IMG/VR virus record: IMGVR_UViG_2693429762_000010 | Span: 1-14,635 of that record | DNA: 14,635 bases | Strand: one strand, 5' to 3' | Origin: a virus | Taxonomy: Duplodnaviria > Heunggongvirae > Uroviricota > Caudoviricetes | Shown here: in pieces, positions 2,974 through 14,349 of the stretch | Layout of the letters: each line of letters begins with the position of its first letter | How positions within the stretch are numbered: the stretch's first letter is position 1 | Program-made: the position numbers and the translations under genes | Notes under the pieces: generated by a model | The model's input: only the letters and a program-made list of their open reading frames with translations | Databases searched by the model: none | Told to the model about the DNA's origin: nothing

Positions 2974-4425
2974 TCATGGCATGGCCATGAGCATTTTCAC
3001 GTCCGCATCACCGTCTTCTGACGCCTGTGACACGCCCCCCTGGACCGCAGCCGGTGAATGGTTCGCCATGAAATGTTCAAACAGGGCGGTTGTGGATGCA
3101 GAGACCGGTTCTGCCTTACCTGATCCCGCAGCCAGCACAGCCCGGGCGCTCTCCACGGTCATTCCCGGGCAGGCAGCCAGCTGTTCAGCCTGCGCCTCAG
3201 CCCCTTTTGCCTCATCCAGGGCCATGATCTGATCACGGAGTGATGGTCCGGCATTCGCCTGCGGTGAAGCAGCCAGGATCGGGCGGGCTTTTTCCACCGT
3301 CATCTCCGGCATCGCCGCCAGCGTTACTGCCAGTTGTTCACGACCGTTCGCTTCTTCACACGCCATAATGCGATCGGCTTCACTCTGCGCGGATGCCACC
3401 GGCTGCTGCGGTGCCGCCGCGGCCAGAATCGCCCGGGCCTGTTCAACGCTCATGCCCTGTTGCCCTGCCAGCATCGTGGCAAGCTGTTCACGTCCTTTCG
3501 CTTCCTGGCATGTCAGGATCCCCATCACTCGCTGGTTCTCCTGCACGGCGGCTTCCGTTGCAGTTAATTGCGGCATAGTGCCTCCTCTGACATTACTGTT
3601 CAGCGCCGTGGCCATCACACTGATGGCATCCGACGCATTGATTAATTCATCCGCCAGCCCGGCCTCAATGCCGGACTGACCTTCAAAAACGGCGGCCTCT
3701 GTTCCCGTGACCGCATCCACAGACAACCCGGTATACATCGCCACTTTTTCGGCAAACATCCGGTGCGCCGCATCAATCCGCTGCTGCATATCCTGGCGAA
3801 CCTCTGCCGGCAACGCTTCAAACTGATTGCCATCCACCTTGTGCGCCCCGGCATAAATCAGCGTGATATCCACACCGGCCTGCGCCAGATGACCGGCATA
3901 GCTGACATGGCTCATCATCACGCCAATGGAGCCGATACGGGATGTCTGGGTAACCAGCCGTCGGGAGCAGGCCGACGCCAGCAGCATGGCTGCAGAACAG
4001 GCCGTGTCATTGCACAGTGCCCAGACCGGCTTCTGCTGACGGAGGCGGTAAATCATGTCAGCGCAGTCAAACGCGCCGGCGGCCTGCCCGCCCGGACTGT
4101 CAATGTCCAGCAGTATGCCCCGCACCTGGCTATCTGCCATTGCCTGCTGAAGACAGGCGACAATGCCGTCATAGCCAGTCATTCCGGAAAATGGCCGCAT
4201 CCCCCCCAGCCGGTGCACCAGCGTGCCGCTCACCGGCAGTACCGCAATACCGTTCACCACCCGGTAAACACGGGCCGGTCGTTTACCTCCGGCCATGTAC
4301 TCGTCCGTTTCAGCCAGCATTCCGGGAGCATCAAGCTGTACCTGCTGTTGTGGTACCGAAAGACTTGCTGCCCCCATCTCGCGCCCGAGCGCGCAAAAGA
4401 AAACCCGCGCATAGCAGGGCCGCAT
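2974..4425 (-). CDS. C: lambda gpC-like head maturation protease/scaffold (S49 ClpP-like), natural N-terminus deleted
   Basis: YARVFFCAL…NGIAVLPVSGTL…GILLDIDSPGG…AFDCADMIYR…PVWALCNDTACSAAMLLASACSRRLVTQTSRIGSIGVMM aligns with remembered lambda gpC, with a repeated C-terminal EEA(K/N)GREQLA motif. Homology begins at YARVFF; the first in-frame ATG (4423-4425) lies in out-of-frame portal-derived sequence, so expression is doubtful. Confidence 0.7.
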   Translation of the reverse strand: MRPCYARVFFCALGREMGAASLSVPQQQVQLDAPGMLAETDEYMAGGKRPARVYRVVNGIAVLPVSGTLVHRLGGMRPFSGMTGYDGIVACLQQAMADSQVRGILLDIDSPGGQAAGAFDCADMIYRLRQQKPVWALCNDTACSAAMLLASACSRRLVTQTSRIGSIGVMMSHVSYAGHLAQAGVDITLIYAGAHKVDGNQFEALPAEVRQDMQQRIDAAHRMFAEKVAMYTGLSVDAVTGTEAAVFEGQSGIEAGLADELINASDAISVMATALNSNVRGGTMPQLTATEAAVQENQRVMGILTCQEAKGREQLATMLAGQQGMSVEQARAILAAAAPQQPVASAQSEADRIMACEEANGREQLAVTLAAMPEMTVEKARPILAASPQANAGPSLRDQIMALDEAKGAEAQAEQLAACPGMTVESARAVLAAGSGKAEPVSASTTALFEHFMANHSPAAVQGGVSQASEDGDADVKMLMAMP

Positions 4426-4552: not shown

Positions 4553-4755
4553 AACCTCACTCCCAGCGGACGACGGCGACGTCGGGTTGTCCCCAGTACC
4601 GACTCCGCATCATTGATCGCCCGGTTAAGCTCATCCAGAGAAGCCGCCGTATATTCAATTCTGCGACCATCTTTCTGGACAGACACCACCCGTTTACCGG
4701 TTAATAAATCAAGGCGCGCCTGACGCAGCGCCTGTAGTTCAGCGACTGTAACCAT
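4549..4755 (-). CDS. W: head-tail joining protein W
   Basis: 68-aa [42 protein letters not shown]… aligns along its length with lambda gpW (…[23 protein letters not shown]…). Confidence 0.85.
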   Translation of the reverse strand: MVTVAELQALRQARLDLLTGKRVVSVQKDGRRIEYTAASLDELNRAINDAESVLGTTRRRRRPLGVRL

Positions 4756-6379
4756 TCACTCCTCCGGACAGCTTCGCTGCCAGTTCTTTAAGGGTTGGCC
4801 GGGTCGTCTCTTCTTCCCGGGATTTTGCCAGTACAGCCAGATCAAGCTGCCAGCGTTGCACGGACACACGTAATGCCGCGTAGGCATACACCAGGCAGTC
4901 CAGCGCTTCGTTACGCCGCTTTTTGTTATCCCACAGCAGACGCATCTTTCCTTTTTCCCACTTCTCCACAAGCTCTTCCGCGACCAGTTGCTGCGCCTCT
5001 GTCTGCGAAAAAATCTCCGGATCATCAGGAAAACGGATGGCATACGACGTGGCTTCATCCGCAGACGTGGGATCGGCTTTCATACGGGCATAGAGAATTT
5101 CTTTTGCGGTGTCCGTCCCCACTTCACACAGATACACGCCCCGCTGATTGCGGGTTTTCGGCATGGTGATCACCGGCTTGCCATAGACAGATGCGCCTTT
5201 TACCGGCAGCACCCGGAAAACACCGTGTTTTTTTGACCTCTGATAGACAATTTCACCATCGATCCCCCCGGTGTCCCAGCAGACACGGGAAATGGTCATT
5301 TCGGTTCCGTCTGCATGGCAGTATTTTTTGTTGATCGCCGCATCCACACGTAACAGCGTCTCTTCCTCATCGGGACGGCCCATAATGATGATTTTATCCA
5401 CCAGAAAAGCTTCCTCTCCCGGTGCCCATCCCCAGACATACATCTCAAAACGGTTTCGCTGCGAGTCAATGCCCGCCGTCAGATAAACCACCCGGGCTGG
5501 CACCGCCGCCGTGTAATGCACGACCTTATCCATCAGTACCTGGTGATCGAGTTTTTCGCCCACGGCCTCTTCCCAGGTCTCGCCCAGCGTGGTGTTCACA
5601 AAGGTTTTCAGGCCGTTGGGATCTTTCAGTGCATCCAGCCAGTCATAGACTATCTGTACCCAGGTGGTGAACGGACTGTACGCCGTCCAGATATGGAACG
5701 TGATGGAGCGCGGCGGCGGAATTTCATTATCCGCGGCGCTGAAAAACGTCAGACCGTCACGGGTCCACATCCCCGTGTTTTCACAGATCCACCGCCCGTT
5801 GCTCTGGTCAAGCTCAGACTGATGGATCACGCAGCCATGATGTTCACAGAGGTAGAAAACGCTTTCGGGGCTGTCCTTCTCCCATTTAAGGCCAAAAGGC
5901 GTGGATTCATCGCCAAATTTCAGATACTGCTCCTCCCCACAGTGTGGGCAGGGCACATAAAAACGCATGAAATGCGCCGACTCGTTGGCCGCTTTTTCGA
6001 TCTGGCAGGTGCCTTTGATTTTAGGCGTCGAGCCGCGAATGGATTTGGGCCATACAGAGCCCTCAATACGTTTATCCCCAAGCAGGGTTGGCGAACCCTC
6101 TTTTTCGACATCCGGTTCGAACGAGGAAAGTTCGTCATAGCAGACCACGTCCACGGATTTTTCACGGTAGTTTTTAGCGGCAGCCCCGCCCAGGCACCAG
6201 AAGCCCACGCCCGATGAAAAACGTTTCAGCGTGAGGGTATTATCACGATGTTTACGCCCAAACCACGGTGCAAGATCGAGTAAAACCGGCACATCCCTGA
6301 TCGTGGGTTCCACATGAGATTTCATAAAATCTTCAGCAGCAGAACCCCTGACTCTGCCAGGCGGTGATGGTCCTGACAT
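4739..6379 (-). CDS. A: terminase large subunit gpA homolog lacking the N-terminal ~90 residues (Nu1'-'A deletion fusion; probably non-functional)
   Basis: [17 protein letters not shown]…[18 protein letters not shown]…[16 protein letters not shown]…[10 protein letters not shown]…[12 protein letters not shown] closely matches lambda gpA from about residue 95 onward. The N-terminal region, including the Walker A segment remembered near residue 80, is absent. In-frame ATGs at 6379 and 6325. Confidence 0.85.
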
Positions 6380-6422
6380 CAACGCCAAAAATATCGGCCA
6401 GTTTTTTCTTATTGACGTTCAT
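6333..6422 (-). pseudogene. nu1: terminase small subunit Nu1 remnant (first ~26 codons only)
   Basis: ATG at 6420-6422 opens [26 protein letters not shown] (lambda Nu1: MEVNKKQLADIFGASIRTIQNWQEQG…), then runs into a stop after 3 more codons where gpA-homologous sequence begins. Confidence 0.6.
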
Positions 6423-6559: not shown

Positions 6560-6620
6560 CTAAAAATTTTCATAAATAGCGAAAACCCGCGAGGTCGCCG
6601 CCCCGTAACCGGTCGGATCG
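6560..6620 (-). other. cos site (cosN cohesive-end sequence with flanking cosQ/cosB regions)
   Basis: Minus strand reads GGGGCGGCGACCTCGCGGGTTTTCGCTATTTATGAAAATTTT, matching the lambda left end. The 12-nt cohesive-end sequence GGGCGGCGACCT lies at 6592-6603, about 170 bp upstream of the Nu1' start. Confidence 0.8.
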
Positions 6621-6639
6621 CCGGAAAGGACCCACGAAA

Positions 6640-6654
6640 TGATAATGATTATCA
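6640..6654. promoter_or_regulatory. perfect 7-1-7 inverted repeat TGATAATgATTATCA (Fur-box-like)
   Basis: Matches the TGATAATnATTATCA half-site model of the Fur box; about 37 bp from cosN and 155 bp upstream of the RHH-like ORF. Could be a coincidental AT-rich palindrome. Confidence 0.3.
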
Positions 6655-6809
6655 TCTATATAAGGTTTATCACAACATGTGTGTACGCCATCAAACCACG
6701 AGAAATAATCAATTATGACGCAGGTATCGTATTAATTGATCTGCGTCAAATTAACGTAAAAGCAACTTCAGATAATACAAATCAGCAACACTGAATATGG
6801 GGAAACATT

Positions 6810-6995
6810 ATGTCATCAAAGAACAGAACCCGCAGAACAACAACCCGCAACATCCGATTTCCAAACCAGATGATTGAACAAATTAACATCGCTCTTGATC
6901 TGAAAGGTTCAGGAAACTTTTCAGCGTGGGTTATTGAAGCCTGCAGAAGAAGGCTGTCAACAGAGAGTTCGGGTATGAATTACATAATTAAGTAA
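6810..6995 (+). CDS. small predicted ribbon-helix-helix DNA-binding protein
   Basis: 61-aa ORF with GGGGAA upstream. Pattern RNIRFPNQMIEQINIALDLKGSGNFSAWVIEACRRRL fits the beta-strand/helix/turn/helix layout of Arc/MetJ/CopG proteins. Equivalent small ORF remembered at the lambda right end. Confidence 0.55.
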   Translation: MSSKNRTRRTTTRNIRFPNQMIEQINIALDLKGSGNFSAWVIEACRRRLSTESSGMNYIIK

Positions 6996-7127: not shown

Positions 7128-7268
7128 TTACTCAAAAAAAAGCGACGAGAAAATCAGCATCAACGAACAATAAGCGCCAATACGTGATAACAAATGGCAG
7201 CCATATTTATCTGCAGTATAAGCAATGGACAGGATAACCACACCAGAAACCGTCAGCATAAAATCCAT
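7128..7268 (-). CDS. hypothetical small hydrophobic protein (46 aa)
   Basis: ORF below the track's size cut-off found by manual translation: MDFMLTVSGVVILSIAYTADKYGCHLLSRIGAYCSLMLIFSSLFFE, with GGGGAAG 6 nt upstream. One or two predicted TM segments. Could be chance. Confidence 0.3.
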   Translation of the reverse strand: MDFMLTVSGVVILSIAYTADKYGCHLLSRIGAYCSLMLIFSSLFFE

Positions 7269-7618
7269 TTGAACTTCCCCGGACAAAATCGACTCATCTA
7301 AAGATTTACAGCTCTTTTTATTATCAATATGTTAAAAGTAAAATAAACAGATGTTCAATAACACGAATACAAAAACGTGCTGAAATTCAATGAATCCATT
7401 TCTGTGTCATCAATTAATAGTGATAAACATCCGGCTTCTTCCACCATCGCACCGGACAGGCGACTATGAGGGGACAACGCCGCGCTCCGTTAACGCGGTA
7501 AACCCCGGTGTGTATCGTTTTTGATTATCCCCGCACACTCGCGCAGAGGAGTCTCCCTGTCGGGCTGCGGTCTCTGTTAATGAGGGAATACAGCGACGAT
7601 ACGGCGCATCAACAAAAC

Positions 7619-8077
7619 TTATTTCAGGCACTGAGTGCGGATATAGTCCTGTGCCCCTTCCAGTTGCTTGTGCATCGTCATCAGCCGCTCTCTGAGGGTG
7701 AAATAATCCCGTGTAACGGTGTCTGCCAGTTGGGGGCCGGTTGCATTATCCACGCCGGAGGTGGTGGGGGCTTCACGCACGGAGCCTGGACAGGTGGCGT
7801 TGATCCGCAGGCGCTTACGACCAGCGGCAACATCAGCGCGCAGAGTTTCATTTTCAGCTCTCGCATCGGATAATTCCCTCGAGTATTTTGCATCGAGCGC
7901 AGCAACATCGCGCTGGCGCACCTGCATATCAGTAATGGTTGCGTTCGCCAGCTTCAGTTCACTGGCTTTGTTATCGCGCTGCGCTTTGTAGGTAATCGCG
8001 TTATCACGGTAATGGTCTGTTGCCATCCACAGCGCACCACAGGCCACCAGCAGAATAACGATAAACGCGGAAAGCAT
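7619..8077 (-). CDS. Rz: i-spanin Rz
   Basis: N-terminal TM segment [17 protein letters not shown] followed by [45 protein letters not shown]…, aligning with lambda Rz. ATG at 8075-8077; an in-frame GTG at 8092 is an alternative start. Confidence 0.85.
7681..7866 (-). CDS. Rz1: o-spanin Rz1 lipoprotein embedded in the +1 frame of Rz
   Basis: [61 protein letters not shown] has lipobox VVSAC with Cys at position 20 and the proline-rich core, as in lambda Rz1. Confidence 0.8.
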
Positions 8078-8088
8078 TCGGTTTATGT

Positions 8089-8220
8089 TCACCCCAGCAA
8101 CCCCGACGAAGACAACATCATCCAGGCCATGGAAAGAAAAAGAGCAACCAGCATTAGTGAAAATGAAATGCCGACAATTACACAGAGGATCTTCGCCAGC
8201 GTTATGAGTTTGTCTGACAT
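8089..8220 (-). CDS. hypothetical small membrane protein (43 aa)
   Basis: [43 protein letters not shown], single predicted TM helix. Strong SD GGGAGGA 7 nt upstream; stop abuts the Rz start region. Confidence 0.4.
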
Positions 8221-8573: not shown

Positions 8574-9107
8574 TTATCTGTCGATTCCCCAGCACGCCAG
8601 CGCGCTCTCCTGGTCACGACGGGATACCTGACCATAACAGTTATTTGAGCGGATACGGCAGTCTCTGCCACCGTCCTTAATCCACCAGCGAATCGCCTCA
8701 CACGCTCCCCTGCGGTCACCAGCATTCAGCCGCTTATAAAACGTCGACGGGAAACACTTACCGGGGCCAATGTTATAGGGACAGAATGACGCTATACCCG
8801 CTTTCTGTGGTTCGGTCAGTGGAACTTTAATATTGCGCTCCACCCATGCCAGCGCCTTATCCCGTTCAATGGCATTAACCTGGTCGCATTTTTCCTTCGA
8901 CAGTTTCATGCCCGGAATAACAGGTTTACCATCCACCATTGTGGCACCGCGGCAGATGGTCCAGATACCCGCACCATCACGGTATGCCGTTGTGTGGTTA
9001 CCTTCTTTTTCATCCAGAAACTGGTCGAGAATATCAGGCGCAGGCGCACCGATGGCAATCAACGCCAGAACGGCAGCCGACAGGCCATATTTGATTTTGG
9101 TGTTCAT
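8574..9107 (-). CDS. R: SAR endolysin (GH24 lysozyme R, phage 21 / 933W type)
   Basis: 177 aa. N-terminal Ala/Gly-rich signal-anchor-release segment LSAAVLALIAIGAPAP followed by DEKEGNHTTAYRDGAGIWTICRG carrying the E…D…T triad arrangement of T4-lysozyme-like enzymes. Confidence 0.9.
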   Translation of the reverse strand: MNTKIKYGLSAAVLALIAIGAPAPDILDQFLDEKEGNHTTAYRDGAGIWTICRGATMVDGKPVIPGMKLSKEKCDQVNAIERDKALAWVERNIKVPLTEPQKAGIASFCPYNIGPGKCFPSTFYKRLNAGDRRGACEAIRWWIKDGGRDCRIRSNNCYGQVSRRDQESALACWGIDR

Positions 9108-14096: not shown

Positions 14097-14173
14097 TGGC
14101 GCGCTGTACTGGATTCGAACCAGTGACCGATTGCTTAGAAGGCAATTGCTCTGTCCGGCTGAGCTAACAACGC
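14097..14173 (-). tRNA. tRNA-Arg (anticodon UCU)
   Basis: Minus strand GCGTTGTTAGCTCAGCCGGACAGAGCAATTGCCTTCTAAGCAATCGGTCACTGGTTCGAATCCAGTACAGCGCGCCA: 7-bp acceptor stem, D-arm, anticodon loop CUUCUAA, T-loop GGTTCGAATCC, encoded CCA. Resembles argU-type and Stx-phage arg tRNAs. Confidence 0.9.
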
Positions 14174-14273: not shown

Positions 14274-14349
14274 TGGTGGCCCTTGCTGGATTTGAACCAG
14301 CGACCTGGCGATTATGAGTCGCTCGCTCTCACCACTGAGCTAAAGGGCC
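14274..14349 (-). tRNA. tRNA-Ile2 (anticodon CAU, ileX/ileZ-like, reads AUA after lysidine modification)
   Basis: Minus strand GGCCCTTTAGCTCAGTGGTGAGAGCGAGCGACTCATAATCGCCAGGTCGCTGGTTCAAATCCAGCAAGGGCCACCA: full cloverleaf, anticodon CAU. Much closer to remembered E. coli ileX than to elongator tRNA-Met. Confidence 0.88.

Follow-up and report, generated by a model that had tools for sequence, protein, structure and literature searches.

The closest described relatives of the element we discuss here are two Fur sites in cryptic prophages of Escherichia coli K-12. One is in Qin, upstream of nohA, the other in DLP12, upstream of nohD (formerly nohB), and both genes are homologues of Nu1, the small terminase subunit. 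The nohB site was first isolated by Fur titration (FURTA; Stojiljkovic, Baumler and Hantke 1994), and nohA was recovered by in vivo selection of Sau3A fragments (Vassinova & Kozyrev 2000). Chen et al. (2007; PMC2189734) scored the nohB and nohA site clusters at 25.3 and 22.3 bits, respectively, ranking both within the ten strongest Fur sites of the genome, and a nohA oligonucleotide was gel-shifted by 150 nM purified Fur. Myers et al. (2013; PMC3688515) reported an FNR ChIP-seq summit at 1634625, in the class 'repressed by Fur'. The main texts of the other Fur-regulon papers examined make no mention of the nohA/nohB loci.

Other systems offer parallels. In Stx1-converting lambdoid phages, the stx1 promoter is repressed by Fur, so there too a host Fur operator sits on a lambdoid phage. 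The stx1 box is far from cos and overlaps a toxin promoter that has been defined, whereas the box described here lies beside cosQ without a defined target promoter. Another parallel is IHF site I1 in lambda cosB, where a host DNA-binding protein has its site within the cos region (PMC4669245). I1 lies toward cosB, and its part in the initiation of packaging has been demonstrated; for the Fur box, which lies toward cosQ, no role in packaging has been.

The subject of our analysis is a stretch of 14,635 nucleotides, which we call the window. It is a decayed E. coli lambdoid prophage, given on the other strand from the lambda map, and its cos region carries a Fur box that is almost certainly already known, as another prophage copy of the K-12 nohA/nohB sites. 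Our preferred reading, to which we give a probability of about 0.6, is that the box is a high-affinity operator for iron-loaded Fur, a widespread but optional accessory of lambda-type cos regions; its target may be transcription toward the small-terminase gene, terS.

The Fur box beside cosQ

The initial annotation drew attention to a perfect 7-1-7 inverted repeat of the Fur-operator type. Both the repeat and its place hold up: TGATAATGATTATCA, read from the letters of the window, lies exactly at 6640-6654 and agrees at 14 of 14 positions with TGATAATnATTATCA, the 7-1-7 repeat at the heart of the 19-bp Fur consensus. At zero mismatches, the window has it once and 200 dinucleotide-preserving shuffles do not have it at all. 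When up to three mismatches are allowed, the window has two Fur-box matches against 0.78 expected, so only the exact match is noteworthy. The box stands 6 bp past cosQ and 36 bp past cosN, on the cosQ side of cos (Table 1). The cosN sequence is the same in lambda, Qin and DLP12, and cosQ is the signal for the termination of packaging (PMC4669245).

Table 1. Features of the window, with positions counted from its first letter
Feature	Position	Strand	Basis
Terminase large-subunit ORF	4739-6388	-	
terS (Nu1 homologue) remnant: ~27 native codons, then out of frame to stop	6333-6422	-	
cosN cohesive-end sequence AGGTCGCCGCCC, reverse complement of lambda GGGCGGCGACCT	6592-6603	.	read directly
cosQ GGGTCCT, packaging-termination signal	6627-6633	-	sequence and 23-nt distance from cosN, as in lambda
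Fur box TGATAATGATTATCA, perfect 7-1-7 palindrome	6640-6654	.	homologous to published Qin nohA site
Candidate sigma-70 promoter TTGTGA-16 nt-GATAAT toward cos/terS	6648-6675	-	consensus scan 9/12, -10 inside box
FNR/CRP-type palindrome TTGATCTGCGTCAA, one mismatch to TTGAT-N4-ATCAA	6736-6749	+	
GATAAT, -10-like hexamer, exactly 21 nt past FNR-type site	6771-6776	+	predicted start ~6783
61-aa DUF3950 / YlcI-YnfO gene	6810-6995	+	PF13132, NF041551, phrog_949, RefSeq
Rz-like lysis gene	7619-8092	-	
Lysozyme gene	8574-9107	-	

The Qin prophage carries the identical TGATAATGATTATCA, and DLP12 carries TGATAATTATTATCA, which differs in the centre base alone. Each lies between cos and the ylcI/ynfO gene, and the DLP12 box, at 580594-580608, keeps the same place relative to cosN and cosQ. 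That these are the published sites follows, for Qin, from the coordinates. The nohA gene is at 1634391-1633822 in PMC2189734 and at 1636367-1635798 in RefSeq, an offset of +1976, so the published site at 1634624 corresponds to 1636600, which is precisely the middle of TGATAATGATTATCA in Qin. The ChIP-seq summit of Myers et al. is 1 bp off this centre. The published nohB site would coincide with the palindrome of DLP12 given an offset of 777 in that region, a figure that is itself deduced.

The palindrome of the window is thus very probably a true Fur operator, since its homologous copies in the K-12 prophages bind Fur and one of them has the identical 15-mer. The assays that had been suggested for it, Fur titration and a gel shift with purified Fur, are already in the literature and were positive for the K-12 homologous copies, of which Qin has the same 15-mer. 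What the window shares with the nohA/nohB sites is the 15-mer, save for the centre base in DLP12, its placement against cosN and cosQ, the Nu1 homologue and the ylcI/ynfO gene. What differs is the linker (ACGAAA in the window versus GTAAAG), 7 extra bp on the distal side of the box and the deletion in terS; otherwise, there is essentially no difference.

That deletion is part of a wider decay. Compared by blastn with an intact relative (L002), the window is missing 763 bp, with the junction at ~6343/6344, which takes all but ~27 codons of terS and the first ~107 codons of terL. The 549-aa large-subunit ORF is thus terL without its N-terminal part, opened by a TTG that lies upstream. The portal gene has a further deletion, of ~1.5 kb, at ~4406-4414. 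With terS, terL and portal all affected, the prophage of the window is packaging-defective and its cos module a relic. The cos site, the Fur box and the ylcI-type gene persist nonetheless, as they do in the K-12 cryptic prophages. Two tRNA genes, at 14097-14173 and 14274-14349 (both minus strand), lie in the upstream part of the late region, a placement typical of Stx-like lambdoid phages; one is Arg-TCT and the other has a CAT anticodon, its homologue in a related genome being annotated as tRNA-Ile.

An ORF of 51 aa at 6639-6794 (plus strand) has its ATG inside the Fur box. We do not regard it as a gene, and it has no family match. Three database 'proteins' (P0165, P0196 and P0219) resemble frameshift fusions of this frame with DUF3950, which suggests that they are gene-calling artefacts.

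The box across lambda-type cos regions

Phage lambda itself carries the same 15-mer at its right end, at 48452-48466 and 6 bp from cosQ at 48473-48479 (counted from the right end), with a homologous 64-aa DUF3950 ORF downstream. Lambda is packaging-proficient, unlike the prophage of the window. In the cos literature examined, PMC4669245 included, the sequence at 48452-48466 is neither named nor discussed.

The initial annotation had proposed a search for the palindrome in other lambdoid cos regions, and it is conserved well beyond lambda. Our probes were the cosN 14-mer against viral contigs and the 14-mer plus CGTA against species-representative genomes, with no selection on the palindrome. 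Chance matches to the 14-mer are frequent in GC-rich genomes; matches were kept only where cosQ lay at the lambda distance. The resulting set was 48 loci with at least 700 nt downstream, and a box was scored at two mismatches or fewer. By this measure, 36 of the 48 loci have a box 35-37 nt past cosN, and in one genome locus (L220) it is 34 nt past cosN. A DUF3950 ORF is found in 25 of the 36 box-bearing loci, ~185-190 nt beyond the box, and none is present within 1.5 kb in the other 11. The reverse arrangement, DUF3950 without a box, was seen in none of the 48.

Many of these loci are close kin, and we merged those that were at least 70% identical over the 30 nt distal to the box. After this step, 14 lineages with the box and 12 clusters without it remained; several of the 12 are variants of one element, which brings the real box-less number to about 9. 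In the 14 lineages, the box sits 4-7 bp beyond cosQ, next to several terminase types and different right-end genes. It accompanies a Pfam Phage_Nu1 small terminase, as in the intact relative L002 and in loci with a lambda-type Nu1, and also a cos-adjacent ORF without a Pfam match (L007, L009 and L083). Over the 14 lineages, the 14 specified positions of the box are 90-100% conserved. The arms are kept while the centre base varies (G, A or T), the 4-7-nt linker between cosQ and the box varies from lineage to lineage, and beyond the box, conservation decays fast into flanks that cannot be aligned.

The ~9-12 lineages without a box have the same cosN, cosQ and spacing. Three box-less loci (L037, L077 and L093) encode a lambda-type Nu1 with at most one difference from box-bearing loci over the first 70 residues, and whatever the box does is therefore dispensable. 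Since the box is kept with or without the ORF and is absent from these lineages, it belongs with cos and not with the ORF. Judged on these alignments, the box is a module attached to cosQ-cosN, under some constraint, independent of DUF3950 and not essential.

Among genera other than Escherichia and Shigella, Citrobacter and Trabulsiella have a degenerate box, and Kluyvera and some others have none; degenerate versions of the box retain the Fur-critical GATAAT/ATTATC cores. Within E. coli, the 701 bp around the finding are 100% identical in several complete genomes, and this cos-ylcI region is matched in 4573 of 5426 complete E. coli genomes, at a median of 2 and at most 14 places per genome.

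The search also returned some oddities. Five viral contigs (L006, L021, L033, L075 and L109) have two inverted copies of cosN plus cosQ, ~500-900 bp apart, with no Fur box; in L006, for example, they are at 348-361 and 1085-1098. These double-cos contigs adjoin an HTH/Nu1-like gene and may be PICI-type satellites. In L123 (minus orientation), a perfect TGATAATAATTATCA lies ~32 nt past a cosN-like 14-mer that has no lambda-type cosQ, and it adjoins a homologue of DNA polymerase III theta. This may be a different type of cos that also bears the box, or it may be coincidence. Finally, lambda-identical cos plus the Fur box turned up in assemblies labelled Raphidiopsis, Aeromicrobium and Alicyclobacillus plasmid (L178, L182 and L190), where the cos sequence is most likely contamination from lambda or a cosmid vector.

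The DUF3950 gene and its putative promoter

The small gene beyond the box lies, as had been described, on the strand opposite to its neighbours: it is on the plus strand, against the minus strand for the terminase and lysis genes. By profile matches, its 61-aa product is a clear member of the uncharacterised YlcI/YnfO (DUF3950) family. It matches Pfam PF13132 (E 9e-19; 67.5 bits, cut-off 25), NCBIfam NF041551 (YlcI_YnfO_N; 35.2 bits, cut-off 30) and phrog_949 (E 9e-32), and the RefSeq entry for the ORF, WP_001329960.1, is named 'YlcI/YnfO family protein'. The family is small and tight: in a set of 1.84 billion representatives it accounts for 106 clusters at 50% identity, largely from Escherichia and close relatives where an organism is named. 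Its members hardly differ over the first ~50 residues, and the variation is in the C-terminal tail.

The initial annotation predicted a ribbon-helix-helix (RHH) fold for this protein and noted that proteins of this kind are usually operator-binding repressors or antitoxins. The fold is likely. The AF2 monomer model (mean pLDDT 71, rising to 84-88 for residues 21-50) has an extended segment at residues 13-18, a helix at 19-32, a GSGN turn and a second helix at 37-59. An hhalign comparison placed the protein on Arc in the correct register (E 0.0026, probability 12%), and the NIRFP motif falls on the beta-strand and the start of helix A of Arc, Mnt and CopG. Searches of PHROGs gave the protein of the window a weak match (E 0.012) to the DNA-binding part of HicB-like antitoxins, and gave a divergent relative, P0193, matches to HicB-like proteins (8e-5) and Arc-like repressors (7e-4 and 0.02). 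On the other side of the ledger, no Pfam RHH family appeared at E < 1 for 30 DUF3950 members, no RHH chain came up when PDB sequences were searched with phmmer or with profiles, and Foldseek, run with the AF2 model on PDB and BFVD, gave no significant match. On balance, we think that the protein is probably an RHH DNA binder. It differs from the known RHH repressors and antitoxins (P22 Arc and Mnt, ParD and the C-terminal domain of HicB) in having neither a Pfam RHH match nor a toxin partner.

The antitoxin role fared less well. It had been noted that no partner toxin ORF was to be found, and this is correct: the ORF at 7128-7286, the sole small ORF close by, is convergent with the DUF3950 gene, lies outside any operon with it and has no family match. 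As there is no adjacent co-directional partner gene, we reject the toxin-antitoxin reading. A type II module is further discounted by the neighbouring ORF being on the opposite strand and by the K-12 and lambda homologues, which also have no toxin neighbour. The convergent ORF (minus strand) would encode 46-52 aa, strongly hydrophobic, and is hypothetical in RefSeq.

The divergent relative P0193 (L224, 4714-5103) deserves a word of its own. It is a 129-aa protein in which DUF3950 is joined to a small-terminase DNA-binding domain of the N-terminal kind (phrog_641 positions 2-54, E 2e-17), and its gene stands alone on its strand, between the integrase and the primase-helicase operon of a satellite-like element. 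We considered this fusion as evidence for a role in packaging and set it aside, because it has only the DNA-binding domain of TerS and its position resembles that of a regulator.

The DUF3950 gene appears to have a promoter of its own. The FNR consensus TTGAT-N4-ATCAA lies 73-74 nt before the ATG in all 33 DUF3950 loci; the palindrome is perfect in 27 (two of them differing solely in the spacer) and has one mismatch in six, the window included. Exactly 21 nt after it comes GA(C/T)AAT, a spacing that window-type and lambda-type sequences share with the divergent L098. The FNR-type site would be near -40.5 of the predicted start, which is class II activator geometry, with no -35. This signature suggests that the DUF3950 gene is a separate unit with its own anaerobically activated, FNR-type class II promoter. 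The predicted start is ~135 nt from the centre of the Fur box, which lies upstream, and this distance argues against simple Fur control of the ORF.

The published FNR ChIP-seq peak assigned to nohA lies in the Qin intergenic region homologous to the FNR-type site (PMC3688515), and the DUF3950 promoter may explain it. The summit of that peak coincides with the Fur box, the FNR consensus is 90 bp away, and reads from paralogous copies may distort the picture, so we take the link as a lead and not a result.

What Fur might control

In the mechanism that we favour, iron-loaded Fur of the host would occupy the box 4-7 bp outside cosQ. Weak transcription starting in or beside the box, with its GATAAT hexamers serving as -10 elements, would be repressed by Fur. 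Transcripts released from this repression would cross cos into the small-terminase gene (Nu1/noh), and the outcome would be a terminase kept silent in the iron-replete lysogen. Transcription toward cos and terS is the leading candidate for the target of Fur, although we put it forward tentatively. The minus-strand TTGTGA of the candidate promoter in Table 1 is conserved, but a 7-bp indel shifts the spacing in lambda-type sequences, where the -10 options within the box are weaker. No single canonical promoter is conserved, in consequence, and we keep the TTGTGA-16-GATAAT arrangement as a weak candidate. The consensus scan found no plus-strand promoter overlapping the box. There is also a point against the favoured mechanism: when the phage is intact, late transcription from pR' passes through the site of the box anyway.

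Published expression data bear on this. Hou et al. (2023; PMC10219339, Table S2) found nohA, nohD and nohD2 up by 3.2-3.6 log2 in a fur deletion, and the effect on nohD2 fell to 1.6 log2 without iron, as expected of a target of Fur-Fe. This resembles direct proof that Fur represses noh, but the data are confounded. The K-12 nohA and nohD genes are 99% identical, the fur mutant used there derepresses an entire third prophage, and the noh loci are absent from its ChIP and direct-target tables. With paralogues this similar and co-induction of an entire prophage, the RNA-seq data are suggestive only. In the same data, ylcI is not annotated as a gene (the locus tags of ybcW and nohD are consecutive).

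Other explanations of the box have to be weighed against repression of transcription toward terS. One is that the box is the operator of the DUF3950 gene, the two forming one iron-responsive unit. The box does lie upstream of the gene on a shared intergenic stretch, and in our sample DUF3950 was seen with a box 25 times and without one never, a count drawn mostly from close relatives. Against the idea are the 11 loci, of at least seven lineages, in which the box stays next to cosQ with no DUF3950 within 1.5 kb. The gene, moreover, has its own conserved FNR-type signature, which with its -10 puts the likely start beyond the range at which Fur on the box could occlude it, and no plus-strand promoter overlaps the box. 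Shared control is therefore not upheld, and we consider it unlikely that the box is the operator of DUF3950. A role in packaging itself is hardly better placed, and we hold it to be unlikely too. Here the box would be a subsite of cos, with Fur acting as an architectural factor or a roadblock for the motor that improves termination or couples it to iron. Fur typically has a footprint of ~30 bp, which would extend from the box to cosQ, and the strict spacing of 4-7 bp holds across 14 lineages with differing terminase types and right-end genes. The packaging motor would reach the box immediately before cosQ and cosN (the direction is given in PMC4669245), and the cos literature examined does not treat the box sequence. 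Nature has, however, provided elements with the same cosQ, cosN and spacing and no box, among them PICI-like satellites and phages with a lambda-type Nu1; a short cosQ with cosN and I2 is treated as sufficient for termination (PMC4669245); and no experiment ties Fur to the growth of lambda. A broader claim, that the box is a selectively maintained accessory subsite of cos through which Fur either acts on packaging or couples terminase expression to iron, we regard as unlikely.

Two further readings do without any local function for Fur. Phage and prophage copies of the box might be decoys that titrate Fur and so derepress iron uptake by the host. On a multicopy plasmid the fragment does titrate Fur, and this led to its discovery; its scores of 25.3 and 22.3 bits are among the strongest predicted for K-12 (PMC2189734); and a single E. 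coli genome can hold up to 14 places with the cos-ylcI region. Data on expression of the Fur regulon during lambda growth were not found, and a decoy has no need of a fixed place beside cosQ, which makes this reading the least probable that we weighed. Scarcely more probable is that the box is a functionless AT-rich palindrome that hitch-hikes with cosQ-cosN, a recombination hotspot of mosaic phages, its binding of Fur incidental. Its dispensability in ~9-12 lineages and the lack of any known phenotype would fit. What speaks against it is the pattern of conservation: the linker and the distal flank vary, yet 14 box positions are 90-100% conserved around a centre base that is free to change, and even the degenerate boxes hold on to their GATAAT/ATTATC cores.

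What is new in this work is modest. It consists of the conservation of the box beside cosQ, the observation that the box does not depend on the ORF, the putative FNR-type promoter of that ORF and the caveat on the RNA-seq data. The finding as filed is a rediscovery of the nohA/nohB Fur sites together with a member of a catalogued family, and as such it matters little. Some value remains in the setting. A Fur site that ranks with the strongest in E. coli adjoins cosQ in lambda and in at least 14 cos lineages, and in the cos and Fur literature examined the strong Fur site and the neighbourhood of cosQ are not connected. Prophage cos regions may contribute many high-affinity Fur sites in some strains and, given how many genomes carry the cos-ylcI region and in how many places, these boxes might affect the availability of Fur. 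Were it true that the box affects packaging or the expression of terminase, a host iron input would be added to a textbook system, one that decades of cos genetics had missed.
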